From NCBI GenBank assembly GCA_046563655.1, contig CM102285.1:12028001-12092000 (forward strand): 64,000 bases of DNA, in the 5' to 3' direction. Positions within the stretch are counted from its first letter, which is position 1; the number at the start of each line of letters is the position of its first letter. This document shows positions 8,073 to 45,206 of this stretch, piece after piece. The DNA comes from Yuukianura sp. NJ FZ-2021. Lineage: Eukaryota. A program made the position numbers and the translations under genes. The notes under the pieces are model-generated. The model was not told the origin of the DNA. It saw only the letters and a list, made by a program, of their open reading frames with translations, and did no database searches.

Positions 8073-11000
8073 CAACGACGAAATGCATTCATCCGTCTCG
8101 TTTTAACATTGTACAACGACGGAATCCAAGGATTAGGTGGGATGTCACGGTGAGGAGGTGGGCCAAGGACGATTGTCCTGAGATTTTGAATCCGAAATTT
8201 TGAAATTTTGGAATTGAAAGTTGACAGAAGTGAGCCTCACTCAGAATTGACCTTTTGACTCCAGATTTTCGTCCTCGAGGTAAGAATGACAAGGTCAACT
8301 CTGAAATCTGGATCTAACTTCAGATTGTTGTCTAAAAGTATCCAGGACTTAGAAATGCCTTCGGCTGCCATCGGTTGGAACAACACAGAATCTGTTCTTC
8401 TACGTGGAGAATACTTGTCTCCTGATGTTGGGGTCAATGAGAACACGATGTCCATTCTGGCCAAACAGGACATTCCTCCGGACACTCTCATTCTCAGTGA
8501 TCCTCCAAAACTGGTTTATTCAACCTTCAGTGTCAATTGCTTCAAAGATTTCACTTACCGGTGCATGAGCATTCGAGATGGCGTGTATCCAAGTAGCTGG
8601 GTTTGCGTTTGTTGCTTGAAGGCAGTCGGCGGAATTATTCCAGGTAAAGGTCAAAGGTCAACTTGAGGTCAACAACGTCATAAGCATTGGCTTCAAAATG
8701 ATTTCTTCTTTCATGCAGTTTGGTGTCCACATTGTGATCTTCCTGTTTGTGCTGAATGTGGATCCAACGGGAAGCATGCACGGATCGACATCCTGTGCGT
8801 CTACGGTCACAAAGTGGTATGTTCAAAAATGAACACAAAAGTTGATCTTGAAAAAGAATTCAACTGAAACTTTATTTTAAAATTGCATGTTTGTTTCTGA
8901 TCCAGGGAGTCCGAGGACGCCGATTTCTAGCTTTGGATGACATTTACTTGGACACTTCCATCACACGGTTTATCTTATGGGAACTTTACTCAGAACCATT
9001 CCGAAAGGTCATTGAGGTCATCTTCCGTGACCCCATCAATCATCGTAAATTTACGAATTTCAATTGGGACCTCTTCAGAACAAAATTCACCAAAAAGCAT
9101 CTTCCGCTAGCACTTTGTGCTGCTCGGAAAGACATTTTACGTATTCGACGTGCCATCTACATTTTGTTCCGTTTTGGAGTCGAAATTCACCAAAAACCAG
9201 GGTTTGCTGCTAATTTATACCCAAAAGGCAGAAAACTATTCAAAATTGCACTTTTAATTCATTCGTACGCTTGAATTTAGCATGGGATTTTTCCATCCTG
9301 TATTCACCATGCTCAAACCTTCGTGTTGTCCCAACGTTGAAATGGTCTTGATTGAGCAACCGGTCATGATTGAAATTCGGACTACACGGAGAATCCGTTG
9401 TGGAGAAAAACTGTCCATGGATTTCCTGCAACTTCCGCTTCTTCCTACAGTGTATCGTCAAAGATTGTTCTACTCAAGGTGGAACTGTACTTGCGTCTGC
9501 GCAAGATGTTTGGATCCAACGGAATTCGGAACGTACATGGGATCCATTAAGTGTCAAAAGTGTTCCAGGGGCTTGCTGACACCACGGTTGAATGCTAACC
9601 TCAACTACGGGCCGTTCTACTACGACGCTTCGGACATCATTTGCTTTTGCGTCAGCCCTGGAAATCCAAATCATAAATGTACAAATATGGTGGGATCCAA
9701 ATACATAAAAAATTCAAATGCTTATCAAAGTTAACAAAAAAAATACAATTTCTGTTTTTAGTGTCCGCTCAACTTTGTCCTGGAACTGGATCGTGCAGCA
9801 AAAATTGACGCGTCAAGAATACTTGCTAAGATTTACTCCAAACCGCGTTTGCCAGAACTAGTCGCTACTAAACTCGAGGTGACTCGGCCACTAAAATTTT
9901 GAAACAAAACAAGTTGACCTTGATATTTTTTGTTTTAGAATTTGAAACGCTACTTGATCACTTGCTATTCAATGCACCGCCAATACTACATGATTCCCTT
10001 GGTCGGCGGAACCGGCGACATCGAAATAACTAAAATACTAAAGCTTGAGCTGGATGGGGCCTCTGCCGTGTACAAAGATCTGTTCAAGCTCAATTTCTAC
10101 ACGACTGAAGCTATTCACAAGAACTTAAAAAGTTTGAATGCTTGGAGTCAAACGATATCCAACTTCTCCAGACATATCGGTTTCAACGCACTTTTTTGCA
10201 AAGTACTTTCAGAAATATTGCATAATCAACGTTATTTACGAATTGCAGATCAATTGATCCTTCTACGGCAAAGTCAGCTTGGAACGACATTGTTCCATAA
10301 CATGCAATTGAAGAACTTGGAGCCGAAGTTTACAAAATGCTGGATGGACATACTAGAAGACATTTCGGACTCCGAGATGTCAGAGGTGATAGAAGAACCG
10401 ACGTGTTGGATTTCTGAAGTCGGGGTAGATACTGATTCTGAAGAAATGAGCATCCAAGACGTATCAAGCGACAGTTTCGTGTCGGAATTGAGTACACTAG
10501 ATGACGAAGTAGGCTATGAGGATGAATCTGCTAACAAATGCACAGACGTAGTGACCTTCATTCCCCAACAGCATTCTTTCGTGAGATGTTATTTCAAAAT
10601 TACATTTTGAAAAATTCATCTCTTTTGGGATGTTTGTCATTTCGAACAGGTTATGCTTCGGCAGCAAGAAATGGACAATCACGCGCATGCTCCAGCTAAC
10701 TCCGGTCATTCTAGAGAATCCAGTGTGCAACAATCCTATCAATCAGTCTCTGCAGCTACAAATTCCTTCTTATGTGATTACACACCCAGCGGAAGTGGTC
10801 GACGGAGACCGAATTTGCTGAAGGAAGCGCTTCTGCGTCAGGAAGCTGGTAGTAAGGGCTTCGCTAGAACCGAAAACGCAGAAAGCGACGGAATTTGCAT
10901 AGTCGGTAAGCCGGAAGATTTTGACGGAACTAAAGGTGACGCAGTAGAGACATCAGGAATGCCGAAGGCTAGATGCATCCCTGTACTTGAGCACTCCGCA

Positions 11001-11637
11001 CGACGAATTCAGGTTATTCCGCCAGCATGCTTTGGGAGGAGACGTTTTCGACAAAATTCCCTGAGACACAACGGTGTGGACTTCCCTTATATCGGAACTA
11101 TCACTCCGGTACACCTAAATCCAAAACAAAATTGCCACGATTCTCACTTGAAACTTCAATTTGTACTTTGTTATTTCTTTTCTCCAGAATATGATTGTTC
11201 GAAAGCCAGAGTTTCCAAAACCTCGTCAACTCATCGACTGTAGTTCCTACGTCAAGTCAATCCAGAATGCTGAAAGTGCTGCTGATGCTGCCGACGCTGA
11301 TCCTGACCATACAGCCGGAGCAGCTCATGCGTATCAAACGTTTTCATTTTCGCAACGTCCTCCACTTTACTCCGGACTGAAGTACTTGACCGGTTCCCCA
11401 CCTCCGTTGGGACTGGCAGCCTCCTCCACTGCTAAAAATATGCAACCAACATGGTGTCAAAACTTTCATAACGTTTCTACTGCTTCTGTTCCAGAAATGT
11501 CGCCTGACCAAGGTCATTTCCAAACATCCAATGCTTCTGATCCCAGTTACACCAATTATGACGACTTCGTCATAGACGAATATCCGCCAATGCCAAGGCC
11601 AGTTGAATCCAAGAGTCAATCGTGCAGATTCCTATAA
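8073..11637 (+). CDS. SET and MYND domain (SmydA/msta-like) protein with degenerate catalytic motifs; 5' end unresolved
   Basis: MYND-like CVCC...CPHCDLPVCAEC; SET C-terminus KPSCCPN...IRTTRRIRCGEKLSMDF; post-SET CTCVCARCLDPTEFGTYMGSIKCQKC typical of arthropod SmydA; long acidic/low-complexity tail. Internal introns are in phase. Confidence 0.8.
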
Positions 11638-11991
11638 ATTCAAAAAAAAAAAGAATTGTAAATTAATTGGAAGCTAAACAAGAGTGTTGTTATCAAACAT
11701 AAACAATCAAAAAACGTCACCAATTCCAAGCTAATTGAGCAAATTAATTCCTGCGGTCATCGTTTAAGAGACGTCATGCTTTCCTTTTGTTGTATTTTTT
11801 ACCTAACTTATAAAATGTTTAGCAAACCTGAACAAAATCGACATGAGTTAAAATGAGAAAGTTTCATGCCAAATGAAAAATTTAATATCTAAATTAGGTG
11901 GAAATGCATACAATACATGGAATGAATTATTTGAAATTTCAACTGGCGTCTAGGATATACTAAAAATTTGAACGCTTTCATTCCAGAGGTA

Positions 11992-12750
11992 TTTGGAATT
12001 TGGAATTATGTTATTTAAAAAGAGTGATTTTCCTACTAAATTTTTAACTTTTTGGAATTTGGAATTATGTTATTTAAAAAGAGTGATTTTCCTACTAAAT
12101 TTTTAACTTTTTGGAATTTGGAATTATGTTATTTAAAAAGAGTGATTTTCCTACTAAATTTTTAACTTTTTGGAATTTGGAATTATGTTATTTAAAAAGA
12201 GTGATTTTCCTACTAAATTTTTAACTTTTTGGAATTTGGAATTATGTTATTTAAAAAGAGTGATTTTCCTACTAAATTTTTAACTTTTTGGAATTTGGAA
12301 TTATGTTATTTAAAAAGAGTGATTTTCCTACTAAATTTTTAACTTTTTGGAATTTGGAATTATGTTATTTAAAAAGAGTGATTTTCCTACTAAATTTTTA
12401 ACTTTTTGGAATTTGGAATTATGTTATTTAAAAAGAGTGATTTTCCTACTAAATTTTTAACTTTTTGGAATTTGGAATTATGTTATTTAAAAAGAGTGAT
12501 TTTCCTACTAAATTTTTAACTTTTTGGAATTTGGAATTATGTTATTTAAAAAGAGTGATTTTCCTACTAAATTTTTAACTTTTTGGAATTTGGAATTATG
12601 TTATTTAAAAAGAGTGATTTTCCTACTAAATTTTTAACTTTTTGGAATTTGGAATTATGTTATTTAAAAAGAGTGATTTTCCTACTAAATTTTTAACTTT
12701 TTAGAATTTGGAATTATGTTATTTAAAAAGAGTGATTTTCCTACTAAATT
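11992..12750. repeat. Tandem array of a 59-bp AT-rich unit, ~13 copies
   Basis: Unit TTTGGAATTTGGAATTATGTTATTTAAAAAGAGTGATTTTCCTACTAAATTTTTAACTT shifts by one base per 60-nt line; only one substitution seen (~12703). Confidence 0.97.
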
Positions 12751-13146
12751 CCGAAATTCCACAATTTAATTAGATATTAATTAAGAATCGTATTTTCGTA
12801 TTGTATAATCTAATTTATTTTATTTCCAAATTTTAATTTCGAAAGCCAATATTACTTCCTAAAAGCATTTATAAAATAAGATGATTCACATTTTCACTTG
12901 AACATATCCTAAGCGTGTTTGGATTTGATTTTCATAAATTTAGTTAGCTAGTGTTCCGTTATTCATAATTCCTACAAAAAAATAAGTTTTTCCTAAAATT
13001 CCAAACTAATTGACTAATACTTCTGCACAAGCCTCTTGAGAGCACAATTTCTATTAATTTTTTAACATTTGAGTTATGTGTGGGAATCGTAAATCAAATT
13101 GAAGACTAGATAATTTTTAAATTGACGACTATTAAATATTCTGCCA

Positions 13147-21361: not shown

Positions 21362-21684
21362 TTTCGTATCCAAACTCGGCAGTGGTTACTGTCGAGATAA
21401 CGCAAAATCTTTCACTGTGTGCTTAATTAAGTGTTAATCGGGCAGTAATCAATTAATGATCAATAGAACCACTTTACACTACAGATCACATGTTTTGAAT
21501 TTCAAAACAAAAACATCACAAGAAAAAAATTGCGGTTTTTTAAACTTACCGGAGTTTTTGTACTGATACGGACGCCTCCGTGAGTTTCTTATGGACATGG
21601 ACATTTCTTCAACCTAAATAAACTTAATTTATAGTTTTATACTTTATGATTTTAACACCATTTTAATTACTTGTAGTGTAAAAA

Positions 21685-24300
21685 ATGGACTGGAATACTA
21701 AAAGTGGTGCTGGAGACTCTGGAGCAGAGCTGCCAATTCTGTCTGACGATGAAGACGGAAGATCATCACAAGTTACTAATCATTCATCACAACATCAATT
21801 ACTCTCAACTGCTCTACGGACTACTGGACCACCGTTGAAAGAACCGTGGGTGCCTGCTCCAGGAAAAACTTCAAAGGTAACTGTTCAAAATCAATAGTCA
21901 ATTCAATTGAAAATGAACTTTGACCTTGAAGGTTCGCTCCCGTTCACGAGTCACTGTCACTGGAGCAATGTCTTTAAATCAGTTGGATCAACTTTCTTCC
22001 TGTGAAAATTCACAACATGCTGGAAGATCCGTAGCTTCAATTCTGTCTGGAAGGCAGACCGTATCGAGTGCTAAGCGTCAGCGCAAAGCTCGAAGTCGAA
22101 CGAAACGGTCAAGGTCAATTGACGAACGGAAAATGTCGGGGTACACTTTGCAGTCCAAGGACTCGCTGATTGACATTGTAAGTTTCAAATTACACTAACT
22201 TTAGGAATTCAAGTATAAATTGACGTTTGTCTTGTTTTTAGACTGCTAGTCTCAACAAAAAACGTGACGAAGTTTTTAAACTCTGGGAACACAATGTGCT
22301 AAATTGTGATAGTGACTTGTTACTCCAATTGGAAACTGCAAACATGCTGGCAATCGAGACTGCCAATGATATCAACGAACTGCGTAAAACAATTGACAAT
22401 TACAAAAAGGTTTGTCAAAAGACAAAATTTCTCAGAAAACTTTGGAGTTTTTCGTTAATTTTTTGAAACTTTGAAATTTAGAAATCTGCAAAACTTTCTA
22501 CTGAAGATGAAAAAGCCTTGACGGTCTTTCGAGTTCGGATTTTGAGCAAATTGAAGCGATTTGAAGAATCGCATGCATATATCCAAAAGAGTCTCAAAGT
22601 AAGTCGAGATTCCAGTAGAAATCCAAGAAGCGTCGACTCCAAACAAGCATCTGAACATGAAAGCCCGGGTAACACTGGACGCAAAACTTCTCGAGAATCA
22701 GTTCGTTCAAAAAAATCGAAATCAGTTCGCTCAAGCACATCAAAATCAAAGTCTCCAGCAAAATCCAAAGTTCCAAGCGAACGTTCTTCCAGCCTCGTTT
22801 ATCTGAAGACTATTGCTGAGAGTTTTGACAACGGAGATACCGATAATGAAGTTGACTATGAAGATTTTGATGATGCACCAGGTGAAACCAAAGCTGAACC
22901 ATCAAAGGTCACGTCTGACATTGAAGAGGTCAGGGACAAACCAGAATCAGCTCCAGAAGAAAAGCGTCAAGGCAAAGAACGGACGGCAAAAAGCAAAAGT
23001 CGAAGCCGCCCGAGCGCTACCGAAGCGGAAGCGTTGAATTCAGCGTTTTTGGTTGACAGAATTTACTATCGTGACAAGGTCAGTACTTCCTTTAACAAAA
23101 ATCAAATGTGATGTTCCAAAAAATTTCATTTTTGAAATTTCAAAATTTCAGATTCGTGGCCTGCATAGGAAACTGATCGAACAAGAATCGAAATGCGTCG
23201 AAATGCGACGAGAAATGAAACGAATGCAGTCTGAGAACTCCTACGATATCAAAATGCTCAAATCCAGCATGAAGGCTCAAATGGAAGACATGGGCCACTT
23301 ACCCGAAATGCTGCAAATCACTGAAAATCGGCTCAACGACTCACTGCATGCGAAGTTTGCAATTGAATCAACGCTTCAGCTCAAACTGAGTGAAATCACA
23401 GCGTTGAAAGTGGAGGTTAAAAAAAAAACAAAAACAAAAAACAAAGTGTGAATACTGTGATTGAAACCAAAACTGTTTAAATGAATTGTAAGATGCTGGT
23501 ATTTCATTTTTAGATTGGTCGGCTGGAAAAAGAACTGGAACAGGCTCAAGTCAAAGTTACAAAATTCGAAGCTAAAAACGAAACGCTTACTGAAAAATTG
23601 GAACGTTTGGAAAATGAAAACAAAGAACTAAGGTGAAAACAAGCTAGAGATAAACAGAAACAGATTAATTAATTAAGTAATTCATTAATTACGAAATCAC
23701 TTTTGACTTTCTTAGGATGGAAATTGTCACAAAGACACAAATGCTGGCAACTTCAGAAGCGAACAATGCTAGAGCCCACGCAGCGTCAGCTTCCCCTAAA
23801 GATGGAAAACCAAAACGGGATCACCGAGTGTTACTTCTGGAAGACAAAATTTCGGAGCTGGAGGCTGAACTGGAATCCGCCAACAAGGAAACGCTGGCAA
23901 TGCGACGTGCTAAACATGACGTGAGCTATATGCAAGATTGCAAGATGCAAAAATTTCAATTTCAACATTTTAAGTTAAAATTTTTGACTTTCAATTTTTT
24001 GTCCAATTTTAGACAACAATTCAACTGAATCGTCGAATTGATGAACTTGTGGATGCTCTGGAAGAGTCACGATCCAGAACTCGAACTCTTCAAACTGGAA
24101 TCAATCTGATCAAAACCAAATACTACGAAGTGTTCTATCCCAATGGAACGAGAATTGGTCCAGAAGAGATGTTCCCAGAATTGACAAAAGTTCTTGCCAA
24201 TATCAAACAAGTCATGGATTCTGGACCTCCGCCGCCCAGTGACTCTCCACTGCCAAGTCCACTTTCGTTAAGTCCTCGACGAGGCGCTTCAAATGTTTAA
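21685..24300 (+). CDS. Coiled-coil protein, ODF2/cenexin-like C-terminal half
   Basis: QMEDMGHLPEMLQITENRLND and ALEESRSRTRTLQTGINLIKTKYYEVF resemble, from memory, two conserved ODF2 blocks; N-terminal half is Ser/Arg/Lys-rich low complexity. Confidence 0.6.
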
Positions 24301-24444
24301 AAAGCTCAAACTTTCAAAAAATACTTAAACTCAAAAACTCAAACTCGTGTTAAATCGTCAACATTATTGTTTCCAATAAAAAATGAGAATCGAAACAAGA
24401 TCAATGGCTACCTCTCACATACAGAACTAATAGCAGCCTTCAAT

Positions 24445-27400
24445 TTAGGAAATATTGAGAACATCTAGAATTTTGGGGTGACGACGAAGCAAGTCCTTGA
24501 ACTCTTGGAACATGTCCACTGCTGCTCTGTTCCTGTTCAAATATACGAAAATTAGAACAAAACGAAGTGATGTTTTCAAAAAACGTTGATTTTCAAACCT
24601 TCGGAAAAATTTGACAGCAATGTCCATGAGAGGGATAGAATTTGTCCCACATCCGATTTCGTAGAGATGAATACACGTTTCCAGATTGAGTTGACAAGAA
24701 CAGAGTCTTTCAATACACTTGTCCCGGAGACCTCTGATCTCAAGTTCCTCTGCAGCCGAAATCAGTTCCAGAACAAGACCAATGTGGCCTGGACAAATGT
24801 CTTCACCATAAATGAAATTCAGCAGCATCTGAATCGCTTCGACGCTGTAATTCCCAATGTCAATCTCAAGCTTCGATGACATTCCAAAAACTTTTTCAAA
24901 ATGGCTGCTCATTGCTAGACAAACAAAATCAAAGTTAATTAATTCTCACGGAACTGCTAATTTCGGACAAAAAAAAGCACGTATTTCTTACCCGATAGAA
25001 TCACAGCATGAACTGGAGCTCGTAAAATTTTTGTTTTTCGGCCATCAATCACGTTTACAACTGCGTCAGAATCGGCTCCTTGTTGCAATTGTGTCAAAAG
25101 GCGAAGAGTGAAGGGCTCTGTGTTTACTGTCTTGAGGAAAGTCATGTCATACTTGCGATAATGCTGATAGCGGTGGTCAGTAGGTTTCATAACGCGAAAC
25201 GTCGGATGAAGTTGAACAGCTCCAAAGGAAATTCTGACCAGCATTTCACTAACGCCGTCCCAACTGGCCATGACGCTTGGTGTTATAAAAGAATTGACTT
25301 CCCAAAAGTAATGGTTTCCGTCTAGCAGCACTCCTGAGGTAAACATTAAACAAGAGTTCATGACCTTCAGTTTCTATTTTCACAAATGTTCAATTTGCTT
25401 CACCTCTTGTCATATTCGCAGTGATGATTCGTCCTTGAGAATCCAAAAGAGAAACCTTGAGGGTCATGCCAATACTTTCAGCGATCACGGACAAGTAGTC
25501 GCTTCGGCTGATTCCAAGCGACTCACTGTTTCTATCCAGTTCTCGATTCTCTCTCCGGGAATTTTCGCTCAAATCAGAGTTTGAAGTGACACGAAGGCTT
25601 ATGCAATTGGAACTTTTCTTCACCAGTTCGAAAAATCTGAAAGTCAATCAAACAAAAACCAATAAGTTTTAACTTTTTGAACAAAACTTCTAACAGCTAC
25701 ACGTAAGTGAAGCCATTACCAGAATACCAGTTCTGGTAATGGCTTCTTGTAATTTCCAGGACCAAAGTAAAGTTCTTATAGTGGTTTCTGGTAATTTCCA
25801 GAACCAGAAGTCTGGTAATGGCTACAATTCTCACCCCTTCTCAATTTCCAAATTTTGCAAAAGCGAAAACGCTTCATTCCTGCCACTCTTCGGGTCACTC
25901 AGGCAAGCTTCGGCCATGGATTTGCAATAATCTGTTGGAATGACATAGAGGTATCCAGTCCAATTTTCACTTGTCGTCTGGAAATTCAAAATTTCAAAAT
26001 GTGAATCAATTTCGTAGTAATTTCAGTTTCCAAATTAATCAAAAACGAAAAGGTGAAATACTCCAATCAGCTTGACTTCATCTGCTGGAAATTGAACCAA
26101 ATTGAGCACAGTATCGTCAGTGACGGGACAAGTTTTATCGTACAACGAAATCAAAATTCGGTTAAATTCTTCATCAGTTGTAGGACTTGTGATGGCCATC
26201 AAAGCCTTTGAGAATGGAAAGTCGATACATTTGTCTGTGTGTTTCATTCTAAAAACAGAGAAGAAAACAAAATGATAAAAATTACTCAAACTCAAATTAA
26301 TTGAATGCAAGTAATTGAATTAATTGTAATTTAAATAACACTCACATTCGGAAACACTCCACAGCTTTGTCTTTCAAACAAGCAGACTTAAGCATTTCTC
26401 CTAATTTGTAACAAGCTACAAGATGCTTGACATTAGTCACTGGATTGTTGAACATCATAATGATGTCTCGAACGCACTTGTCCTTCAATCCATAAACTTC
26501 CAGCCTATTTCCAACTTCAGCCAAGTTCACAAGAGTTGACAAGTCATTGCAATGAATTTCTCCACTGTAAAGGTAATCGATTAACACAAGAAGCGTAAAA
26601 TGATGAAATCCTTCCAGCACAATCTCCTCCCTTGGCCGAAGATATCCGCCAAGAGAATTGCTTTGAGCTAAAAAAAAATACAAAAACTAAATCAAAATTT
26701 GAAAAGTTTGAAAAATGCTGTTCCAGTATTCTTACCAGCAAGTAAGACGCGATGTGCTGGTAGGATCGTCACATTCTTGCTTTTATCCTGAATTCGAAGT
26801 TTCACATTTGCAAATTTTGTATTGCTGGCCCAACTTCTGAGGAACGAATTGTATTCTTCGTCTCGAACGATTTGGTAAAGTAAATTTCGAAATTTTGAGT
26901 CCAAAGTGTATTGGGCAATTCCATCACTGGAAGGAGCCGTTTCGGGTTGTGACTGCGGTGCCAAACTGTATCCAATGAATTGAATTCGGATCAAAAGGGA
27001 GCCGGTTTTAGTCAGAAGTGATCTTCCAGAAGTCGTCAGAGCATCCAGCGATATGAAGTCTTTGATACGAAAACAGATTCCACCTTTTGATCCACGTTGA
27101 CCTAAGGAACAAAATTTTCGGTAAAAACAAAAAGTAAATTGCAATTTGCAAATTGCAAATCGCTTACAGCATGCCAGTTTTTCTGCTTGCAGAAGATTTC
27201 CGTTGTCATCAACTACTGCAACGCTGAGAGAACTGCCTTTTATGTCACGCAGAATCGGAACAAGGTCTGCTGCTCCTGCTTCACAGTTCAAAACAGACCG
27301 TAAATGCAGCGCTGGAGAATTTCCAAGACGGTAAATAACGAATTTCCTAGCACAACAATAAATTGTGACAATCAGTTATTAAGTTACAGCATTTTTAAAA

Positions 27401-27940
27401 CTAATTGAGTAAGTTACATGGGAAACTCGCAGTCCACGCCCAAATGATTTCCAAAATCATATACGCGTGGTGACGTGTCGTCTTTCCCGTCAGACGCTGG
27501 AGATCGGTAAAACAATTCAAAAACACTGGAAGGTGGGATCTCGAAAACTAGCAGGAACTTGTGAGTGTCAAATCCCTGGAAAACAAAAACAATGAAAAAA
27601 ATTATAACTTTCAAATTAATTAGTCTACTTGTGTTGTTGAAATTAACTTACGCCAATAATTCGAAATGGATTGATGACATTGACTGGTGTGTCGACTACC
27701 ACAGGCGTCTCTAGCTTCTCGTACAACTTCACAGGGTGACTTGGTATTCCCAAGATGGATGCCAATCTTAGCTTGCCTGGACGAACCCTCAAGTCATCCG
27801 ACGCCATGTCACTGTTGAGGTCCACTCCAGATACACTTGGCTAAACTTAAAGTAAACTGTTAAAAACTTAGAAATTGCAAAGATTATGGAAATTATACCT
27901 TTCGTATCGCCGCGTTAATCGTTTTAAAATCAACAACCAT
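24445..27940 (-). CDS. Protein with two BTB/POZ domains, each preceded by a divergent MATH-like region (SPOP-like, duplicated)
   Basis: BTB1: ANVKLRIQ..ILPAHRVLLA..LIDYLYSGEI..LEVYGLKDKC. BTB2: SDAVVNV..APVHAVILS..SSHFEKVF..LLNFIYG..AAEELEIRGLRDKC. The linking exons appear to read through without a stop. Confidence 0.75.
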
Positions 27941-28186
27941 TTCAACAAATTGGGGAACTTTTAAAACATGACAACTAAACAATCGAATTTTAAAGTATTG
28001 CTGAATGTTTCCAAAGTATTCAAATACCATTTCATGCCAGCTTCCTTCTTTCGGAATTAGTTTAATTCACAATTGAATTAACTCGGGAGCAAAATTGTTG
28101 AGGAGTAAATGATTGGTGTCACTTGTGATATTTGACAGAATATTTAAACGTAGCATGGACATGATGAATTAGAATTAGTATGTTTA

Positions 28187-29912
28187 TCATTTCGATTTAC
28201 GGGAGAAGAAGTTCATGATAGCGTTCATACAGTCTTCTGATTGCCATCTTTCCAGTAGCCGATCACATTCGGCCTTGTTCACTTCATGAAGTAAAGCACG
28301 CTCTCTGCCTCGAACCAAGTCTTTGCCGTAGACAATGGACTGAAACGGAAAAAGAAAAAAGAATCATTGATTTTCAGAAACGGGGGTCTAATCCCAGAGA
28401 ATTTTTAGAAGGACGATTGAAAATACTTACCTTAACTGGAAACTTTGCAATTTGGTGTACTTTGTTCCAAGCTTCTACCTCAAACCGATCTTGCGGAATT
28501 ACTTCGCTAACGAGTCCCCAGTCTCTCGCTTGGCCAGCAGTAATTTTGCTGTTGAAGAAGAGAAGTTCACTTGCCTAAAGTGGAAAATGGAAAATGATGG
28601 TGTCGAAAGTAATAAGAGGTGACAAAAAAATTGATTGCATATTTTTACCTTGGCGTAACCCATGATCCTCGGGAAGGTATAAGAAGAGCAGCCTTCTGGA
28701 CTCTGTCCAAGAGCACTGAACGGAGTATGAAACGTTGCCTAGAAATAAACCCAGTCCTGGTGATGAAATATAACTGTCCTAAAATTTTGGAAAAAGCTAA
28801 CAGCTATCCACTGTGGGAATGAAATAAGCTTTGAAAAAAGTTCTTACAGAATCAGAAGCATACACAGCATCGCAGAGTCCTAGAACAGTCACAGCGATTC
28901 CAATTGCAGGTCCATGAATAAGCGCCACAATTGGTTTGCGACAATTGATATATGCAGCGACGTAACGCCTGTATAGTAAAGTTAGAGATATTCCAGTTAG
29001 TAAGCACGGTAAACTTTTGTTTCTAAAAACGCTTTAGCTTGGCTTACTGTAACCGAGTGTGTGCTTGTTCTGCAGTCGCTTTGACATCCGTTACTTTTGT
29101 GAAGTTGGCCAAATCATTGCCACTGCAGAACAATTTCCCGGAGCCGGCAAGAACGACGACATTTGTAGAAGCATCCTCGTTGGCAGCGTCAAGTGCTTGA
29201 GCAATTCCGTCATACATCTACGCAGATAAAAAATGTAATATATACTGCAGTGAATTGTAATGATTGATCTTTCAATCTCGTATAGACACTTACCTCAGGG
29301 GTCAAGGCATTGAATTTATCTGGACGGTTTAAAAATATTGTCCTAACTCCATCTTTGACAGTTATCTTTAATCCATCAGCAGAATCAATCTTCTTTTCTT
29401 CTCCTTTAGCACCGGATGCTCCAACTAGTTCATCCACAAACTTGATGTACTCCTTTTGAGCCTCTTCCTAAATAGAAATTCGTCGTGTTATACTATTAAT
29501 CGATGACGGAATTTTAACTTATTCGGAATTTACTTTGCTCATGTCTCCCAACGCATTCCATGCATCCCATTTAGCCTTCTTGACCAATTCCATTAAACCG
29601 GGACGAGACGTCGTATTTTGTCCAACCGTCGCTTGCTTATACAGTGCATAAAGCTTCAATTTTTGCTGATTATCCGTTTCCGAAACACCTTTAAGTCGTT
29701 CCACGGCAGAATCGAAGGCCGACGAATACATTCGAGCAAACACAGACGTTGTTCCAGCTCCAGTAAACCGGGTACATGTTGCACTATGTCATAAAACCAA
29801 GAACATGATTACTTTTCAGTCTTACATCTTTCTTCCTGTTGATAGGAAAACGGATTTACCCGAGTGCCGGTATTCGTCTAAGACAAGCGATTGACAGCGT
29901 TACTTGAGACAT
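28187..29912 (-). CDS. ECI2: Enoyl-CoA delta isomerase 2 (acyl-CoA-binding domain plus crotonase domain)
   Basis: ACBP motif [85 protein letters not shown]; basic N-terminal presequence. Confidence 0.93.
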
Positions 29913-34405: not shown

Positions 34406-37400
34406 ATGGTTCAAAATGCTGCTGAATGCTGTAAACAAGGTAAGCTTAAGATCGCTGGAAGTTTAAAACTAAAACTTTGCTGTTCATTTTAATGTTTCAA
34501 GGTTTGCGTTTTTACTAAATGGCTTTCCTATTAAAGTTAACCCAAATACAAACATCTTCGTAGTAAAGTAATGCATTAAGTTAGGGTGTAGTTCGATGTA
34601 ATTGCAAAGGGAATTGAAAATGTGCGAGGAGAAAGTTAACTTTCTCTTCTCATTTGTCTTTGTCAACTTTACATTTAATCCCCTAGCTAGCAGCTAACGT
34701 TCATTTTATTTGGAGTACTTGTCACTTTTGAATTGATTTTAAGCGACAAGGGACATGAATAGATAGAAATTAGAAAGAGACAGATTCAGTAAGTTTTCGC
34801 AAAACTGAATGCAAGAGACGGTGAAAGTAAGAGACAAGAGAGGAAAAAGCAATCGATTGTTCTCATGAGCTCAGGGAATTCAGTTGACGGCTGTACTGCT
34901 GCTAGTCATGGTGGCAGCTCAAATCATGCAAATTCTTTGAATTTCCGGAGTTCCATGCTGACAGCAGCTTTAGAACTAATGCAGATCCGAGAACATGTCA
35001 AAGTATTAACGTCAAGTCTGAAAATGCAGAAAACTTGTTTCCCTTTTCAAAGTCCCAGTTCATGCATACAGAATAAAGTTTAACGGAGATCCTCTCCGAC
35101 CAAGGTCAAAGGTCACAAGAGAAAATTTCACTTTCACTAGACTTTCCCTCAGGACTGACTGCAATAGTCTATTCCCTTGGATTATGATTCTCATTTCCAA
35201 TGCCAAGAGTTAAAAACTAGAAACTACGTAGGTAGGCAAGTTAAGTAAAAAAGTGAGAGAACGCGTCCAATTTGGTGGAGCAAATTAATCAAGACTTAGC
35301 AGATTTAATTTCCAAAAGTATATTTATAAAGTATTTAGTATAAAGTATAAAGTATTAAGTATAAAGTCGTTCCCCGATTAATTTCCGAAGTAATTGAGCA
35401 ATTTTTCCCAGTTGCTTAATTTTTTATTCCTGGGAGACTAGGTTAAGTAGTTGTTTCCCCCTTGCATAGGTAGTCGTGTGGTGACAACTGAATCTATTAT
35501 GTAGGAGATGAAGAGATGATGGAAGTCGATGAAGATGATAGAATTTGATTCGGCAGAAATAATTTTGAAAAGATTTTCGCAAGATGCATTTTCATTTGCA
35601 TCATTTCATAATCAATGTAAAAGTCAGCTTTGCTGTATTCGGACGGACGGTATAATCAACAAACTGACGAATTAATAAGTTAATCAGTCGAGAATGGGTA
35701 GAAATTTCGAATGCCGTTTATGCACTTTTTTCAGTAACGTTTCTAAATGCTTTGAAATTTGACCTCTGACCTTTTGACCTCAGGGAAGGAAGTCAACGGA
35801 AGCAGGAAGAGACTTGATGTTGCGGAAGATGGGGCTGGAACTGTGGAACGCCGTGGCCTGGAGCGGACGTTCTCAATTCCAGCTGACGCTGTTCACCTCA
35901 AGAGACGGGTGGGACTCTTCAGTGGGGTGGCTCTGATTGCAGGCGTCATGATTGGTATGGCCCCACCAAAAATACATTTTCAATTAATCAATCTCCAGTA
36001 ATTAATTTTGACATGAACATTTGTTAAGGGAGTGGGATATTCGTATCCCCGGCGGATGTGCTGGAGAGAACAGGATCCGTGGGCATGAGTCTCGTGGTTT
36101 GGGCTGGCTGCGGAGTTTTAGCGATGCTTGGTAAGCGATACTGCGAAATTTTCAGCTAAATCCAATTAGGATAGTGATGACCTCTGACATTTGGCGCAAA
36201 GGAGAAGGAATTCGATTAAGATAGATTGCATCTCGTGTCGATCCAGCTTAAGCCCCAATGTGCCCAATCACGTCACGAATCCCAGACGCTGGAGACTCCA
36301 CGACGTTCCAGAGCTGCCCCAGTTGCACCAATAATTCATCATCTTCATGGATTTTGAAACTGAAATGTCTACCCTGAAATTTGTTCAGTTAATTAACGTT
36401 TCACAATCTGATTGAATTTTGATTCCACTTTTTCGGATCCCTGTTTCTCAGGAGCGCTAGCCTATGCTGAACTGGGCACGATGAATCCAAGTTCTGGAGC
36501 GGAGTATGCCTATTTCTCGGATGCTTTCGGAACTGTTCCAGCATTTTTGTTTTCGTGGGTATCGACGCTTGTGCTCAAACCTTCACAACTGGCAATCATT
36601 TGCCTCACATTTGCCAAATATTCTCTGGAAGCTTTCATTGACGGAACAGCACCACAAATTTCTATCAAGCTCGTCACGGCTGCAACAATCGGTAAAAATT
36701 AACGCTTGGATGCTGTGCTGATGTTCATGACCTTTGACCTGACCTGTCTTTTTTGTGTTTCTCCAGCACTGCTTCTATTTATCAACTGCTACAGCGTAGA
36801 TCTAGCCACTGGAGTCCAGAATGTGTTTGCTGCTGCCAAATTTTTGGCAATATTGGTCATTTGTATGGGTGGAATTTACAAATTCATTGAAGGAAATCCA
36901 GCAACTGAGAACATGGGATTCGCTGGTACAACTGCCAGTGTTGGCCAAATTGCAACAGCATTCTACTCATGTCTGTGGAGCTACGATGGATGGTAAGTTA
37001 GATTCGTTTTTTAATCAAAAAGAAATTGTAACTGATCAGTTTTCGAAAAGTTGAAAATGAAATTTTTGCTTTCAAAATTTCAGGAACAACTTGAACTATG
37101 CAACAGAGGAAATTAAAGATCCAAACAAGTAAGTAGAAGAAAGTAAAAAGAAAATTTTGAGTGTTTTTTTTTGAAATTTCGTTTCCTTTTTAGAAATCTT
37201 CCGCGTTCAATCATAATTGGTATTCCACTGGTCACCATTTGCTACTGTTTGATCAATGTCGCCTACCTGTTCGTCCTCACTCCTGAAGAGATGATTTCTT
37301 CACCAGCAGTAGCCTACGTAAGTACACTTCAAAATTTTCAAAAAATTGACTCTTTTTACCAAGATCCACTTTTGTTACAACTGCCTTTCACTTTCTCCAC

Positions 37401-38583
37401 TTTCACTTTGAATTGAAAAGTAATTGAATGTTGTAGACATTTGGACAACGAGTTTTGGGCAGTTTTGCTTGGATTATTCCCCTAAGTGTTGCTGTTAGCA
37501 CTTTCGGAGCAGCCAATGGAACATTATTTGCCGCTGGACGGTACGTTGTTGAAATCAAATCAAAATTTAAAAAAAATTCAATTTCATAAATTCAACTTCA
37601 ACTCGCCTCTTCTTCTATTGAATCAGTTCTCGTTTTTGTTGAAATTTTAGATTATGTTTTGCTACAAGTAGGGAGGGGCAATTTACTGACATTTTGTCCT
37701 ACATTCACGTCCGACGCTTCACTCCCGTACCGGCGCTTGTCTTTCACGTTAGTCTATTTTCAAAAAGTTTCAAAAATGAAAATTTAAGTTTTAGATTCAA
37801 AAACTTTGTGTGTAAAATTTGTATTGTTCAAATTTTCAGGCAATAATTGCTATCATCATGGTTCTAACTGGAAACATCGAGTCCCTCATCGATTTCTTCA
37901 GTTTCACTGCTTGGATTTTTTATGGTGCTGCCATGTTGGCAGTGATTGTACAAAGATTTACGAGGCCAAATGTACCACGCCCTTACAAGGTACTTCCATT
38001 AACTGTTCTAGGTCAAGTGTCAACATGGATTTGCTTTTTCGCAAGATATTTGCAATTACGATTTCGCAATTTCTCAAATTGGCAAACCCTGTTCTCTGTG
38101 ACCTTCCAGGTACCTATAGTTGCTCCAGCGTTTGTTCTTCTAGTGTCTCTGTACCTCGTATTCGCTCCAATCATCGAAAATCCACAACTGGAGTACTTGT
38201 ATGCTACTCTCTTCATCATTGGTGGTAAAATCATAGTTTTTAACAAAATTACACAAATTAAAAAAAAATTAAATCAGATTTATTACGAGTTTTTTATTGT
38301 ATTTGTAAAAAGTTGCAAAAATTTTGCAGGGCTCATCTTCTACGTCCCGTTCGTCCACTATGGATACACAGTGAAGTGCATGGGTGAGTATTTAGCAAAA
38401 CCAAAATCAGTTTTTTAATTTTAGTTAAAATTTAACATATTAAAATTCAAGCTAAAACTCAAAACATAGGCAACCAGAAATACTCCAAAATCTTTTCTTT
38501 TAGAAAACGTGACTATTTTCCTACAAAAAATTTTTCAAGTGGCAGCTACCGAAGTAATGGAAGAAGAACGACATTTTCTCTGA
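34406..38583 (+). CDS. SLC7 light-chain amino acid transporter (b(0,+)AT/LAT family), paralog 1
   Basis: [92 protein letters not shown]. First coding exon tentative. Confidence 0.92.
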
Positions 38584-38968
38584 GCTTATCCAACCTGAGC
38601 TGGTTTTCAGAAGATGCCAAACTGTAGATTCAAATTGTATCAAAAACATTCAAAACAACGTTGAACATATCGCACAAGCGATATCCAGCATATCGTAATA
38701 TCGAAACATTTCCAGAAAGTATTTTTAGAAGCTTTCAAGTTTTAGAACAAAATATTCTTGAACTTTGATCTTTTACTTATAAAAAAAATTGCTCAAGTAT
38801 CAAATCTTCTTTCTCCATTTAAAAAGCATTCTTTTGCGCTTTCCTGTTCTAATTTAAGTGTTAAATTGTTTCGTAATTGTATATTACAGAATAAATCAGT
38901 TAATTAGTTTCGATTTTTTTTTTCAAATTCTGAACAACTCAAAATTTTACTTTTCAAATGGATTGATT

Positions 38969-41156
38969 TTACCAGTAGCCAATGAGTACTGCTGGTTCGT
39001 CACGACCAATACAGATAATTTTGGTATCATGAATGAAAAGATGCTCAACACGTGTCGGACTGTGGACAATTTTGTGTAAAAGTTCTCCAGATTGTACATT
39101 GTAGACGCTGAGTTGTTGACCATCTTTAGCAGTAATCAGGAAATCGCTGGAGCATTGGAAGCCTCTGGAGATTCCAGCTGATGCTGAAGTGACCCAGATG
39201 ACCTCTCCAGTCCAATTCAGCGCTGTGACAAAACCGTCATATTGATGATAGACAATTCTTTCCCCGTGCACAATCAGACTGTCCACATAAGCTTCACTGG
39301 TTTTCACAAAAATCGATTCCTAAAACGCAAGAAACGTCTTTTTCAAAAGTTTAGAGAAAACGGAAAATTCTTGCTTGAAGAGTTCTTCAAAATTTCTACC
39401 TGTGTTAAGATATTGGCAGCGTAAATTATGGAATCTTGTGCAATCCAAACGATTTTGTCAGCATTTCTCGGATCAATTCGAATCTCTTCTGTTAATTCCT
39501 GGGATCGGAATTCCGTGAATTCAAAAGGTTCTTGAAAATCGTACATGAACAGAGAAATTGTCGTGTCAAATCGCTGATTCATTCTTCGTTTCTTCGCGGT
39601 GAGGTAAATCGCTGAAGCAGAAACGAAAGCCTGAGAAAAAAACGTTGAATTTCAAAATTTTTAAAACTTCGAACAAATTTTGTTTGAATTGACCCTACAT
39701 TTCTACATGCTTGGACACCTTGCGGAACTTGAATTTTTTTGATCAAATCTTTTGTGTCAAATCCAAAAAGTAAAATGCAGTTGCACGCGTATCCAGAAAC
39801 GACCAAATACTTTTGAGTGACCAGAACAATTAAATCTGATGCCAAGTAGTCACTGTCCAACCAAGGCTCGATCAAGTTATTGTTAGGTTCAGCGATTTCT
39901 GGAGCAGGGTTAGAGGTCAAATTTGAATTTTCATTTACATTCACTTGCTCCAAGGTGTGGTCAGAAGCCAAGCTTAAAGTTTCCGTCGTTTGTTGTATGT
40001 TAGGGTCAGAGGTCAAGGGGTTTTCAGTGATCTGCTGCAAGTTAGAGGCTCTTGGTGTGACAGCCAGTGAATCTCTAAATTTTTGTGTGAAAAGTGTATA
40101 TTCGTTTTGGATATTTGGAGTTGGAAGGGCCCAAATTCTAAATTGAAACACGGGGTCAAGGGTCACTGTAGCTTTGGTTTTAGTAAATCCTGGCGGGATT
40201 TTGTATGCTCTGGTAACACCATCTTGATACAAAATCGCTAGCAAATCTTCGCTGAGTCGCACTTGCTCAACAACCGTTGAGTACACGATCGTATCCTTGA
40301 GTTTCGGAACTCCTAGAACCAATACAATACAAAATATCGTTAAAAATGTTTAAAATGTGCTTTAATTTTCAAAATTACCAGAAATAGACCAGAGGTACAC
40401 TGATCCAGAATTGGATCCCATTGCAAGTATGCCCATTTCGGAATTGGAGTCTGCGCATGTGCAGAGATCGGATCCTTTCTTGTTGTCCGGAACGTTCATT
40501 TGGTGGATGACATTTCGTCCTTGACGCCAATTCTGTCTGAGATGGTGACATTGGCGGAAGTAGCGACCCCATGGACACAAGCTTGGAAAAATCAAGGTCA
40601 AAGGTCAAAGTTTTGTACGCGTGCGCTTGTGTTAAACATATCTGACCTGGAGATTCTACTTGAAGCAATCGGTGGTAGCATGAACGCTGGAGACGCGCGA
40701 CGTTCACGTCCAAGCGTAGCTGAGTCAACGTGTGTCGCTGATTCGGTCCACTTGAACGGATCCGTTTCGTCCAATGGTTCTTCCACTAGACGAAACTGTT
40801 TGCAGCGATTCATCCTAGACACATAAAGAACCCAAAGGTCAAAGGTCAAGAGTAGCAGACTAACATTGACCTAATTTAACAATACAATAGTTTTACCATT
40901 GTGTATTGTTGTTTATGACGTGTCTCCATTGAATTGACACTTGACAACAAGTCATGAGGTCTTTGCATGGGAGAAAACCAAACAGTTTGTCACTGAGTTC
41001 TGGAGGGAACAGATCCACAAAATCCATAGCTATAGCTCTAGTCGTTTCTGGTTTGACCTTGACTGGCCCTGCTGTGTTCGCATTTTCGTCATCATCGTTT
41101 GGGTCAAGAGCCGGAAACAACTGAAAATGGCTCGAACTTCGTCTCTCATAACTCAT
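38969..41156 (-). CDS. F-box protein with divergent beta-propeller (WD40-like) C-terminus
   Basis: F-box DFVDLFPPELSDKLFGFLPCKDLMTCCQVSIQWRHVI; then LRQNWRQGR, LAMGSNSGSVYLWSI and QLSVYNVQSGELLH beta-repeat segments. Confidence 0.8.
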
Positions 41157-42525
41157 TTCTTTTCAGTTTCTGCAATTTCTTCAAAAGAATGAATTTCTAA
41201 TTTACAAAGATTTACTTTGGTTCAATTGCGTTTTGGAGGCCATGTCATGAATGCTACGTTTTTTGGTGTATTACCGCTATATGTCCTTCTGATCCTTCTG
41301 CTTTCTATTCAAAGGCAGAAGATTGCCTAAAACCTAAAATTTTCTGATTTGAGTCAAGTTTTAATTAAAACAGTTCAAAATTTATTCAGGTCTAAATGGG
41401 GACTTCCAGGGCAACTAATCTCAGTTCAAATTAAGTTCACATTATGCCTGGAAAGTGATGCGGAGGGTTAAGTTTTAGTTTTGCTAACCCTGTTTCCAAA
41501 AAATCATTCTGGAAGGAGTCCTTGGACTTGAAAGAACATTCCGTAATTTATTTTTAGTGCTTAATTGACTGCAAACAATAAAATTTTGCATTGTCGCTTG
41601 CACTGTTTTACGAAACCTTTTTCAAATCACGTCGCTGTAATAAATATTTTTTAGTGTATTGAAAACAGAAGCTGCGTCAAAATATGCAGTGTTTTGAGCT
41701 CGTATTTCCATTTTGGTGACCTGGAGCATACCAACATTAATTCATTAAATTGTACAATTACACACTAAACGTAATAAGATTATTACAACTTTCAAAATTT
41801 CTTGTGCAATTTCCAGTTAAATTTTCAATTTGAGTGATAAATGGTACACTAAAATCTGGAGAATTGTGAAAGGTGTGGTGACCAAATCCAAAATTTCGAA
41901 CTGCCGAAAAATTGAAACTTCGGGTGTGTTTGTTACATCGAATATTTCTACAGATTTCTGTAAGGTAGAGATTTTGGCTTATTTTTAAAACAATACTAAT
42001 TACTTTGCTTTGTTCAAAACAGTTGAGATAATTACAGAAGTGATTTGAATTTAGTACTAACTTGATCATAAACTTGTAAATTATAACAGGTTTTGGAATA
42101 CCCGAATCATGATTTAGAAACACTTTTGCCAAAAAAAGTGAAGTAACAAATGGAAACGCTTTCACATTTTTAATCTGTGGAATTTTGTTTTTCTTTTTAA
42201 ATTTTGTTGTGTTAAAACGGTGAGCAGCTACTTGGCTGTTATGCAATCACAGGAGATTACAAAGTGTGAAATCAATTCCGTTATAATTTGTGTTAGTTGA
42301 CATTGTCATTAAACTTAACTCTACTTATTTTTGTTGCAATCGCGCTACGTTAATTAAGCGTTAATTAAGCGATTAACTTAGACCTTAACCTTAAATATCA
42401 AAATTTTAACTCATTTAAGCATTTTAGATACGTTTATTCAATTCAACTGTAAATTCAAGTTTTAGTACATGAAAAATTTTCAAAAAATTATTCCAGTTCG
42501 AAACTAAGCAGATTATTATGAAAAT

Positions 42526-45206
42526 ATGGACAATCCAACATTTGAGTCAGGTAATTAACTGTTGAATTTAGAATATTTTCAAAATTTTGAAAAAGATCCT
42601 AGTACCATAAATCAGAGAGTTCAAATTTTGTTCAAATTTTTTTCAGAACAAGTAATTACTGAACGTAAAAATGCAAACAAATTGAACGGTAGTGTACCAA
42701 TATCCGAAATAGTAAAAACTTCAAATGGCCACGCCCTTTTTGCAAATTCCGGGGAACAGAAGGTGGAGCTACAGCGGGAAGTCGGTTTGCTCTCCGGTAT
42801 TGGACTCATCGTAGGCGTCATTATCGGTAACATCAAAAATTTCAAAAACTGAAAAATTTGTTAAAAAATTAAGTTAAAATAAATTTTATTTAAAAAAAAA
42901 TTCAAAACTTACTCTCAAACTGCCGCAGGCAGTGGGATTTTTGTGTCACCCGGAGGATTATTAGCAGAAACTGGATCGGTATGGCTGTCATTGTGCGTAT
43001 GGCTGGCATGTGGGTTCATCTCCACCCTAGGTAAAGCAGAATCAATTGCTTATGAATCAGAATCACTACTATTAATTATGTAATGTTAATTAATGTTAAT
43101 TATTCACTGAAATCACTGGAAATCTTAATTCCCTGCCGATCCTTGCCGATTCCTTTAGGTTCCATTGCGTACATTGAGCTCGGAAGTGTCGTTCCAAGTT
43201 CGGGTGGTGAATATGCTTATATTGGCGCAGCATTCGGTCGACTGCCAGCATTTCTGTACTCCTGGATAGCCACAATTGTGCTTAAACCCTCCGGGGTAGC
43301 CATAGTTTGCTTAACGTTTGCAGAGTACTGCATTTCCCCATTTCTGCCGATGCTGGGATTTGAAGAGGGTACTGGATTCGAAGTACCGGCGCTGAAGTGG
43401 GCATCGATCCTCATATGCTCCGCAACGTTATGTAATACAAAAATAGAATGCTTTTTTGTCAGTTTTCAGTTTAAAGTGAACATGAGGTCAAAGGTCAACA
43501 TTTTCCCGTTTTTCTTTTCAGTACTCGTCACGTACATCAATTGTGTGAGCGTCCGTGTTGCCGTGTTGGTTCAAAACTACTTCACACTTGCTAAACTAGT
43601 TGCTCTTCTAATCATCATAGTCGGTGGAATTTACAATCTCGCGACAGGTATTTCCAGCAGATTACCTTGACCTTTGACCTGCTTCATACCATCTTCAATT
43701 TTCGCGAAATTTTTTGATTTTGATTTTTACAAAATGGTTCCAGGACAGGTTGGTCAATTAAACACGGGTTTTGATGGAAGTAAATGGGAATATGGGCCAT
43801 TAGCTGCCGCTTTCTATTCAGGTTTATGGGCATTTGATGGCTGGTAATTTTTTTAAAATTTGAAAATTTTGTTTCACTTTCCCGAAAAAGTGAAAAGCAT
43901 TTCATAATTTTTCGACTTAAAACTCTAGGAATAGCTTGAATTACATCACAGAAGAAATTAAAAACCCGTACAGGTACGTGTAAATGAAAAACGCTTCCAC
44001 TTTTTAACAAAAAGAAAATTTCAATTTTAAAGTTCAAAAATCATAGAATTTTGATATTTCACAGGAACTTACCAGTGGCAATTTTAGTTGCTCTACCACT
44101 TGTCACCTTTGTGTACTTTTTTGTCAATGTGTCCTACTTCACGGTGGCTACAGTTGACGAAATTATCAATGAGCCAGTAGCTATCGTGAGTTAACATTTC
44201 TCTGAAAAGATTTTCGAAAAAGGTGCTAAAAATTTCGTTTCTGCAAAATTTTAGATTTTCGGGACACGAATGCTAGGTCCCATGGCGTTCTTGATGCCTC
44301 TAGCAGTATCGATTTCAACATTTGGTTCTGCCAATGGAAGTCAGTTTACTGCTGGAAGGTAATTAACGTTTTTCAAAATTTTAATCGTCTAAAGCCAAAG
44401 TGATTTAGTTTTATTCTTTTTTTCGTTAAAGGTTGTGCTATGTTACTGCTCGTGAAGGGCAGTCGATTGAAGCTATAGCCTACATCGATGTCCGACGCAA
44501 AACTCCGTCGTTTGCTATGGTATGAAAAACTTAAAAAAAGGGGTGAAAATTTTTTCACTGAAAATTCGAAATTTCGAACGTTATGTTTGTCACTAAGTAC
44601 CTCTTCACGTTTCGATAGGTTTTCAATGCTGTCCTAGGAATTTCGATGACAGTTTTTCTGGATATCGGAAGTTTGATTCACTTTTTTAGTTTTACGGCGT
44701 GGATTTTCTATGCTGGAACATTTGCATCGCTCATCCGACTTCGATTTACTCGCCCCGATGCTCCACGACCTTTCAAGGTTCAACTAAAACATAATTTCAA
44801 AATTTCTTTTTAAAAAAAATGAAACAAAATGAGTGAATTTTACCGTATCCACTAGGTTCCAATTGTGATACCAGCAGTTCTTCTACTGATCTCAATCTTC
44901 TTGGTAGTTGCTCCAATAGTGGATAATCCACAGGTAGAGTACCTCTTTGCTCTTGGGTTCATCGCTCTTGGATTCTTCGTCTATTGGCCATTTTGCCACT
45001 ACCATTATGTTCTTCCTGGAATGGGTTAGTGTTCACAATTTTCTAAAAAAAAAAACAAAAACGAATTCATAAGGTTCCTTAATCTGCTATGTTTTTCAAT
45101 GAAAATAGGAAACTTTACTTACTGCATGCAAATGTTGTTCAAAATCATTCCACCCGAAATTGACGCAAATGCTGTCAGCGTCTTCACAAATCCGACCAAG
45201 AAGTAA
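42526..45206 (+). CDS. SLC7 light-chain amino acid transporter, paralog 2
   Basis: [93 protein letters not shown]. Confidence 0.92.

Follow-up and report, generated by a model that had tools for sequence, protein, structure and literature searches.

Near-perfect nuclear-receptor half-site pairs centred on short introns throughout the genome of Yuukianura sp.

Introduction

Pairs of the half-site AGGTCA (TGACCT on the opposite strand) separated by a single nucleotide form a direct repeat, DR1, of the type bound by nuclear receptors (NRs). A stretch of 64,000 nucleotides from Yuukianura sp. NJ FZ-2021 (GenBank assembly GCA_046563655.1, contig CM102285.1, positions 12,028,001 to 12,092,000; C3:12,028,001-12,092,000 in our numbering, hereafter the window) contains seven exact copies of the perfect 13-mer, in which the spacer is A, and this raises the question of whether the locus is special or whether it samples something more general. 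A preliminary description, made from the letters of the window, had listed the seven copies, five forward and two reverse, and had proposed either an NR-controlled metabolic domain or a genome-wide intronic mark. All seven are present where they had been placed (Table 1), while shuffled versions of the window hold 0.01 copies on average and none of 100 shuffles reaches seven; allowing up to two mismatches raises the count to 18, where 1.9 would be expected. Also, an ab initio gene model in which the half-sites were masked bears out that all seven are intronic, six of them in 65-96-nt introns of four genes and one in a long intron. The chance baseline of far below one copy that had accompanied the list is, however, misleading. 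One copy occurs per 21.5 kb genome-wide, which gives 2.97 per window, so that seven (P = 0.032, approximately 2.4-fold above the genome rate) represent a mild cluster only. Five of the six short-intron copies lie inside 7 kb (P = 0.007 in a post hoc test). Hence, the finding is real and is not a property of the locus: the window is one view of a genome-wide, short-intron-centred set of near-perfect NR elements.

Genome-wide counts were made over 98.7 Mb in 22 contigs, whereas all sample statistics given below rest on 864 kb, made up of the window, a further 200 kb surrounding it and twelve blocks of 50 kb from eight contigs. Genes were predicted ab initio with a self-trained gene finder, with AGGTCA and TGACCT masked in the emission scores, which assigned 32% of the sample to exons and 30% to introns (1,123 introns, median 87 nt). 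The models agree with a by-hand reading of the sequence for both SLC7-type genes of the window, and tested exons were matched by Pfam. Introns of up to 150 nt are referred to as short (n = 863). Repeats, which cover 6.8% of the sample, were screened in about 1 Mb, or about 1% of the genome, and families outside the sample are therefore missed. The best identity of a UDP-glucose dehydrogenase (UGDH) exon, 82%, is to the springtail Orchesella dallaii, with the next listed matches one point lower. Together with the presence of EcR and USP, this marks the genome as that of an arthropod, probably a springtail.

Genomic distribution of DR1

The perfect DR1 occurs 4,585 times in the genome (2,325 forward and 2,260 reverse), compared with 52 occurrences of the reversed word. 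In the sample, which contains 40 perfect copies, AGGTCA/TGACCT is the top over-represented hexamer (902 copies, 2.8 times the order-2 Markov expectation). The density depends strongly on context and is not uniform, with 31.3 perfect copies per 100 kb in short introns, 5.5 in introns longer than 500 nt, 1.8 in exons and 0.9 in intergenic DNA. When arrays are collapsed, short introns (73 kb) hold 20 events and intergenic DNA (326 kb) holds three, a 30-fold difference (p = 2e-12), and 14 short-intron events (21.6 per 100 kb) are left when the window is removed. This upholds the genome-wide intronic mark that had been offered as one of the two possibilities. The pairs concentrate in 55-150-nt introns; a perfect DR1 is found in 20 of the 863 short introns (about 2%), a degenerate one in 32 and a half-site in 77 (9%). 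There is no first-intron bias (5, 11, 5 and 5 sites by gene quartile), and third-position GC content, observed/expected CpG, coding-sequence (CDS) length, intron length and splice-site strength did not differ between host and non-host genes. Clustering is marginal for neighbouring genes (p = 0.038) and for neighbouring introns (p = 0.049). The word itself is a textbook one and its placement is not: while the motif class is known, we met neither this placement nor this perfection in the papers searched, and no published description of a short-intron bias of such sites was found in the motif, lineage and EcR-element literature, of which coverage was incomplete.

Pairing grammar of the half-sites

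The half-sites pair mainly as DR1, then as DR0, DR2 and IR1, a grammar that fits NRs. Across the genome there are 2,373 DR0 (spacer of zero; 228 for the reversed-word control), 5,846 DR1 with any spacer (control 138), 1,052 DR2 (control 97) and 2,111 DR3-5 together (control 371), that is about 700 for each of the last three. Inverted repeats with a one-nucleotide spacer (IR1) number 981 (control 62), as opposed to 155 IR2-4 together (control 73), about 52 per spacing. Independence of the half-sites predicts about 54 pairs per direct and about 27 per inverted spacing. DR1 and IR1 are therefore sharp peaks, and tandem duplication cannot be the source of the 19-fold IR1 peak. The DR1 set has RGKTCA halves, a one-nucleotide spacer in which A is preferred (4,585 of 5,846, with G next) and a spacing that rises above the neighbouring ones. 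A purine lies 5' of 61 of 70 perfect copies.

The two DR1 halves are not equivalent: variants at position 2 number 817 and those at position 9, 350, while the counts for positions 3 and 10 are 233 and about 386 (for the latter, 88 among the first 100 of 439 matches). Among non-repeat sample sites, 35 are perfect and 53 have one mismatch, and single mismatches at positions 1 to 13 occur 8, 8, 1, 0, 1, 1, 10, 2, 3, 7, 3, 6 and 3 times (chance below 0.5), with seven at the central positions 5, 6, 8 and 9 and 25 at the end positions 1, 2, 12 and 13. If a 7-mer next to a lone half-site were duplicated, the mismatches would be expected in the centre. The spacing spectrum and this mismatch profile point to a sequence-reading protein.

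Candidate readers and comparison with known systems

The genome encodes conserved DNA-binding domains that match RXR/USP, COUP-TF (Svp), TR4 (Hr78), HNF4 and EcR, so that cognate receptors for both DR1 and IR1 are at hand. The 38 exon matches to zf-C4 amount to an ordinary arthropod receptor set, and an expansion of the NR family was consequently rejected as a cause. A GTCCA half-site is specific to HNF4. The HNF4-type variant AGGTCAAAGTCCA is rare here (7 among the first 100 of 439 matches, compared with 4,585 perfect DR1), and GTCCA is not common beside GGTCA as in elements of the CAAAGTCCA type, so that HNF4 is not singled out as the reader. The consulted parts of PMC4362205, PMC12856210 and PMC5569996 contain no receptor-specific matrix that would assign one. 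A predicted gene at G000:C1:1,919,765-1,923,250 (loci L076, L070, L069 and L061) encodes about 12 C2H2 fingers and, after these, divergent C4 double fingers of the NR type, four or five in number, with four Pfam zf-C4 matches and no ligand-binding domain in the model; based on its non-canonical P-boxes, it is probably not an AGGTCA reader.

Bacterial DNA uptake sequences are likewise near-perfect short words over-represented across a genome, on either strand and in coding sequence as well, but the present sites follow the grammar of a eukaryotic transcription factor, are biased towards introns and have no known uptake or drive. A further likeness is to the DR1 elements of RXR/USP, COUP-TF/Seven-up, TR2/TR4/Hr78, HNF4 and PPAR-RXR, which share the 13-mer consensus, RGKTCA halves and the A spacer (PMC6555819 and PMC3019231, both consulted in part). 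According to the same excerpts, RGKTCA is the half-site recognised by RXR-class receptors, which have a preference for adenine as the spacer of DR1 (PMC6555819), and TR4 favours DR1 with A or G in the spacer (PMC3019231). Human TR4 sites are situated near promoters and in first exons and introns, with under about one third containing a DR1 (PMC3019231, in part), whereas thousands of perfect copies are found here in internal short introns and intergenic DNA is poorest. As for EcR-USP, the 981 perfect AGGTCA-n-TGACCT words, their sharp spacing and the presence of both receptors resemble its IR-1 element. However, the perfect IR-1 is described as an idealised, higher-affinity, non-natural element and the natural hsp27 element as degenerate (PMC1885670, in part), while here the sites are perfect; no IR1 is among the sites reported for the window.

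The C7 block (locus L105) holds two UDP-glycosyltransferase genes, of which one has two perfect IR1 in a single 67-nt intron and its paralogue has one perfect IR1 and one with a single change. Both are candidate ecdysone-responsive genes.

Host genes and conservation

Under a relaxed pattern, 30 of 162 multi-exon genes have a DR1 intron. The hosts encode enolase-like, threonine aldolase, arginine kinase, cytochrome b5, ABCA and sphingomyelinase proteins and two SLC7 transporters, together with F-box, calpain, rhomboid and M16 peptidase proteins and, as judged by eye, DMRT, homeobox and receptor genes; UGDH, polyketide synthase, P450 and asparagine synthase genes are among the many metabolic genes without DR1 introns. 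Because the rate in the window is only about 2.4-fold up and the hosts are functionally mixed, the special metabolic domain proposed at the outset is not supported, and as the motif is genome-wide a window-specific domain was rejected. DR1 is depleted from the short introns of 29 core genes (3 of 271, against 29 of 592 elsewhere; p = 0.006, for a hand-picked, non-blind set), and CDS half-sites are likewise scarcer there (0.75 per kb versus 1.23 elsewhere).

The SLC7-type genes A and B both have a perfect DR1 in a homologous intron (36692-36766 and 43432-43521), at different offsets and in opposite orientation; their third codon positions give a value of 0.36, near saturation. This pair, a single case, fits retention or regain of a function over shared sequence. 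Two tandem arginine kinase duplicates (L039:4564-5830 and 6250-7520) have 67% amino-acid identity and two introns in common. Half-sites in aligned copies were kept in 36 of 52 intronic cases, compared with 23% of control hexamers, a figure that we set aside, since both directions were counted, repeat arrays dominate it and some loci had been chosen for the motif.

Splicing, transposon and slippage models

It could be argued that the sites act in RNA, with UGACCUUUGACCU serving as a branch point and pyrimidine tract, or as filler, in short introns. Sense-strand TGACCT is indeed found in 24 of 31 single-orientation introns and AGGTCA in seven, a raw ratio of 3:1, and the sites lean towards the 3' half. 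Relative to intron composition, however, AGGTCA is the more enriched orientation (37 versus 4.7, 7.9-fold) and TGACCT the less (75 versus 14.1, 5.3-fold), and AGGTCA is absent only from the last 20 nt of introns, a zone of general AG avoidance that the raw TGACCT excess parallels. Nor are the sites restricted to one strand or to a set distance from the acceptor: they extend from the donor up to 4 nt short of the acceptor with no branch-point-like peak, no fixed distance to either splice site was found, and splice-site scores, for donors and acceptors alike, are the same as in introns lacking the motif. In coding sequence, the two orientations of the half-site occur 151 and 153 times, compared with 58 and 67 in synonymous shuffles (2.6- and 2.3-fold), and DR1 occurs six times compared with 0.1. 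As both orientations are enriched, no splice distance is fixed and an excess exists in CDS, the data speak for a DNA-level signal filtered by splicing constraints, in agreement with the preliminary description, and the orientation independence expected of a DR1 response element is seen in short introns and CDS. With IR1 being palindromic besides, we consider an RNA-level origin improbable.

Repeats offer another route, in which non-autonomous transposons spread AGGTCA arrays that have since decayed, leaving the short-intron copies behind. Repeats packed with DR0/DR1 arrays do occur in the genome (L001-L003, L018 and an array on C5), and in a metagenome scan that returned at least 120 motif loci, 92 of the 120 listed belong to one dispersed-repeat cluster; dominated by this cluster, the scan is silent on the intron bias in other animals. 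There is precedent in the HNF4 sites carried by Alu (PMC3252374, consulted in part), and these, like the DR repeats of the metagenome, match the present case in the very high copy number of DR1-like words. In contrast to such repeat-borne sites, the short-intron copies lie within ancestral introns, lack common flanks (identity 0.293 over 32 DR1 introns, 0.299 in controls) and are accompanied by IR1, while the metagenome repeat loci have no IR1 in 272 kb and match the genome's own repeats only over the array (23-34 nt). Also, 22 of 23 perfect short-intron copies are outside any repeat found in the sample, and neither shared flanks nor a fixed intron position, as expected of repeats or introners, was detected within the roughly 1-Mb screen. 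Within that screen, the copies thus do not trace to the flanks of one dispersed repeat, which the preliminary description had named as a possible refutation, and seeding from transposons is quite unlikely as the general explanation, although it may have produced some sites. Slippage of 6-8-nt units at a common hexamer, a neutral process, has in its favour that arrays exist and that full duplications are in excess for the A spacer. It predicts DR2 to be at least as frequent as DR1, central mismatches, symmetric halves and no IR1, and all four predictions fail; the symmetric units, full duplications and missing inverted form of slippage microsatellites do not describe these pairs. Copies with a G spacer (9 of 17 non-duplications, 10.3 expected) or a C spacer (4 of 6, 4.0 expected) lack the duplication signature, and slippage would leave AGGTCA as the top hexamer unexplained. 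It is largely refuted as the main cause and has very little probability in that role. Slippage extends some sites, and neither it nor transposons account for the pattern.

Selection for binding or protein-dependent accumulation as possible explanations

The best single reading, which on the sequence evidence we regard as somewhat better than even, is that the sites are genome-wide NR response elements under selection for binding, for the purpose of intragenic regulation. A sequence-reading protein would keep near-perfect response elements in place within gene bodies. The probable readers would be the resident NR2-class receptors USP/RXR, Seven-up, Hr78 and HNF4 on DR1 and EcR-USP on IR1, and selection for binding may maintain the sites as anchors of intragenic enhancers or silencers, mostly in non-housekeeping genes. 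More speculatively, short AT-rich introns could be favoured as the exposed linker DNA of compact genes. If these sites are read by receptors, introns of 60-100 nt, commonly regarded as inert, would be the place from which hormone and lipid sensors govern a compact genome, and thousands of targets of EcR, USP, Svp, Hr78 and HNF4 would be predicted in an early-branching hexapod-like lineage.

Several observations weigh against selected response elements. The usual ground of enhancers, intergenic DNA, is the poorest in DR1 (three events in 326 kb), the gene models behind the intron calls are ab initio, and clustering within the same gene is not significant (7 versus 5.8 pairs, p = 0.34). In 30 motif-centred 3-kb loci, all from one end of C1 and with poor gene prediction on such pieces, the split is flatter (8 short intron, 7 long intron, 6 exon and 9 intergenic), and 10 of the 30 are in repeats or gene families; the short-intron share thus differs between regions, and repeats carry some of the copies. 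In CDS, the control word ACTGGA likewise exceeds synonymous shuffles (1.6-1.7-fold), and the flanks of lone half-sites account for a large part of the preference for an A spacer (0.65 of 0.78). Only 12 of 75 A-spacer copies are non-duplications (24 expected, an excess of full 14-nt duplications), which, together with one intron that is largely a 7-mer array, indicates that slippage contributes. Evidence for conservation is thin, as two of five paired sites are common to both copies and three are in one copy only among 25 homologous paralogue intron pairs, the second tandem arginine kinase copy lacks the DR1 that the first has, and third codon positions within half-sites are identical in 23 of 31 cases versus 18.5 expected (z = 1.7, paralogues only). 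Finally, natural elements are usually degenerate (hsp27pal; PMC1885670, in part), and such perfection is odd under ordinary selection.

A related possibility, to which we give a minor share of the probability, is that NRs act as general gene-body marks, where DR1 and IR1 in the linker DNA of short introns would organise or silence tissue-restricted genes, or where binding would bias mutation or repair and so spread the sites, exons included. In a purely non-adaptive but still protein-dependent version, which by analysis appears unlikely, bound alleles would be shielded from mutation, or would gain an advantage during repair or gene conversion, and perfect sites would accumulate where non-coding DNA is oldest and least churned, i.e. 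in short introns, and even in exons, in the manner of DNA uptake sequences in some bacteria. The very sharp consensus, the presence of the motif in CDS, hosts that are not tied to a single pathway and the turnover of sites between paralogues are all compatible with this, whereas the depletion from core genes, in introns as well as CDS, is better explained by gene-specific use. To our knowledge, no germ-line mechanism for such an accumulation has been described, which counts against it. If it were nonetheless correct, a protein-guided mutational or repair bias would be writing a transcription-factor motif into an animal genome. Selected response elements and non-adaptive accumulation jointly make it likely that the sites are read by a protein.

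Sites of the window and further repeats

The sites of the window and their host genes are listed in Table 1. Of the near-matches given in the preliminary description, those at 35760 and 36178 were confirmed, the one at 46287 starts at 46286, and that at approximately 60300 is a gapped form that is one base short; its list was incomplete, as 2321, 21914, 38010, 40003 and 40153 also match with up to two mismatches. By eye, the host gene at 8025..11637 may be SET/SMYD-like.

Table 1. Half-site pairs and host genes in the window (positions counted from its first nucleotide)
Feature	Position	Strand	Context
DR1, G spacer	2321..2333	+	spans donor of 68-nt intron, aldehyde dehydrogenase gene
Host gene	8025..11637	+	three tested exon pieces without Pfam match
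Perfect DR1	8648..8660	+	4 nt past donor of 75-nt intron 8644-8718; third half-site at 8666
One-mismatch DR1	21914..21926	-	55-nt intron
Host: SLC7/LAT-type amino-acid transporter gene A (AA_permease_2)	34406..38583	+	
Perfect DR1	35103..35115	+	SLC7-type gene A, long intron at the 5' end; exon structure there uncertain, intronic in either model
Three-half-site array (DR2 + DR1 with G spacer)	35753..35780	-	immediately 5' of acceptor 35783
Two-mismatch DR1	36178..36190	-	intron 36131-36451 of SLC7-type gene A
Perfect DR1 + overlapping half-site	36728..36740	-	75-nt intron 36692-36766 (+), SLC7-type gene A
Host: F-box protein gene	38969..41156	-	
Two-mismatch DR1	40003..40015	+	coding exon 39699-40312 of F-box gene; second one at 40153, same exon
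Perfect DR1	40595..40607	+	65-nt intron 40582-40646, minus-strand F-box gene
Perfect DR1	40836..40848	+	82-nt intron 40815-40896, minus-strand F-box gene
Host: SLC7/LAT-type gene B	42526..45590	+	49% amino-acid identity to gene A
Perfect DR1	43485..43497	+	90-nt intron 43432-43521 (+), SLC7-type gene B
Perfect DR1	43668..43680	-	96-nt intron 43648-43743 (+), SLC7-type gene B
One-mismatch DR1	46286..46298	+	97-nt intron 46272-46368, cytochrome b5 gene

Repeats of several kinds were encountered. L001-L003 (C1:0.23-0.28 Mb) form a large palindromic dispersed repeat of more than 1.1 kb with nested inverted arms and DR1 arrays, and the metagenome loci L141-L260 represent a high-copy dispersed repeat with DR0/DR1 arrays on eukaryote-like contigs of several records. 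The 66-nt calpain intron at C4:1,522,354-1,522,420 (L088) consists largely of seven TGACCT/TGACCC 7-mer units. The TTAGG-like words GTTAGGTT and TAGGTTAG, which resemble the arthropod telomere repeat, are 7.4- and 8.5-fold over-represented in the sample, away from contig ends. In the window, the model at 24445-29912 on the minus strand starts as an acyl-CoA-binding protein and ends BTB-like; the predictor has probably joined two or more genes here. At 11992-12750 lies a tandem satellite with a 59-bp unit (12.9 copies, 99% identical), from which the top 12-13-mers derive, while a 19-bp AT-rich tandem array is present at 48393-48885 and a 386-bp unit in 2.5 copies at 54332-55301.

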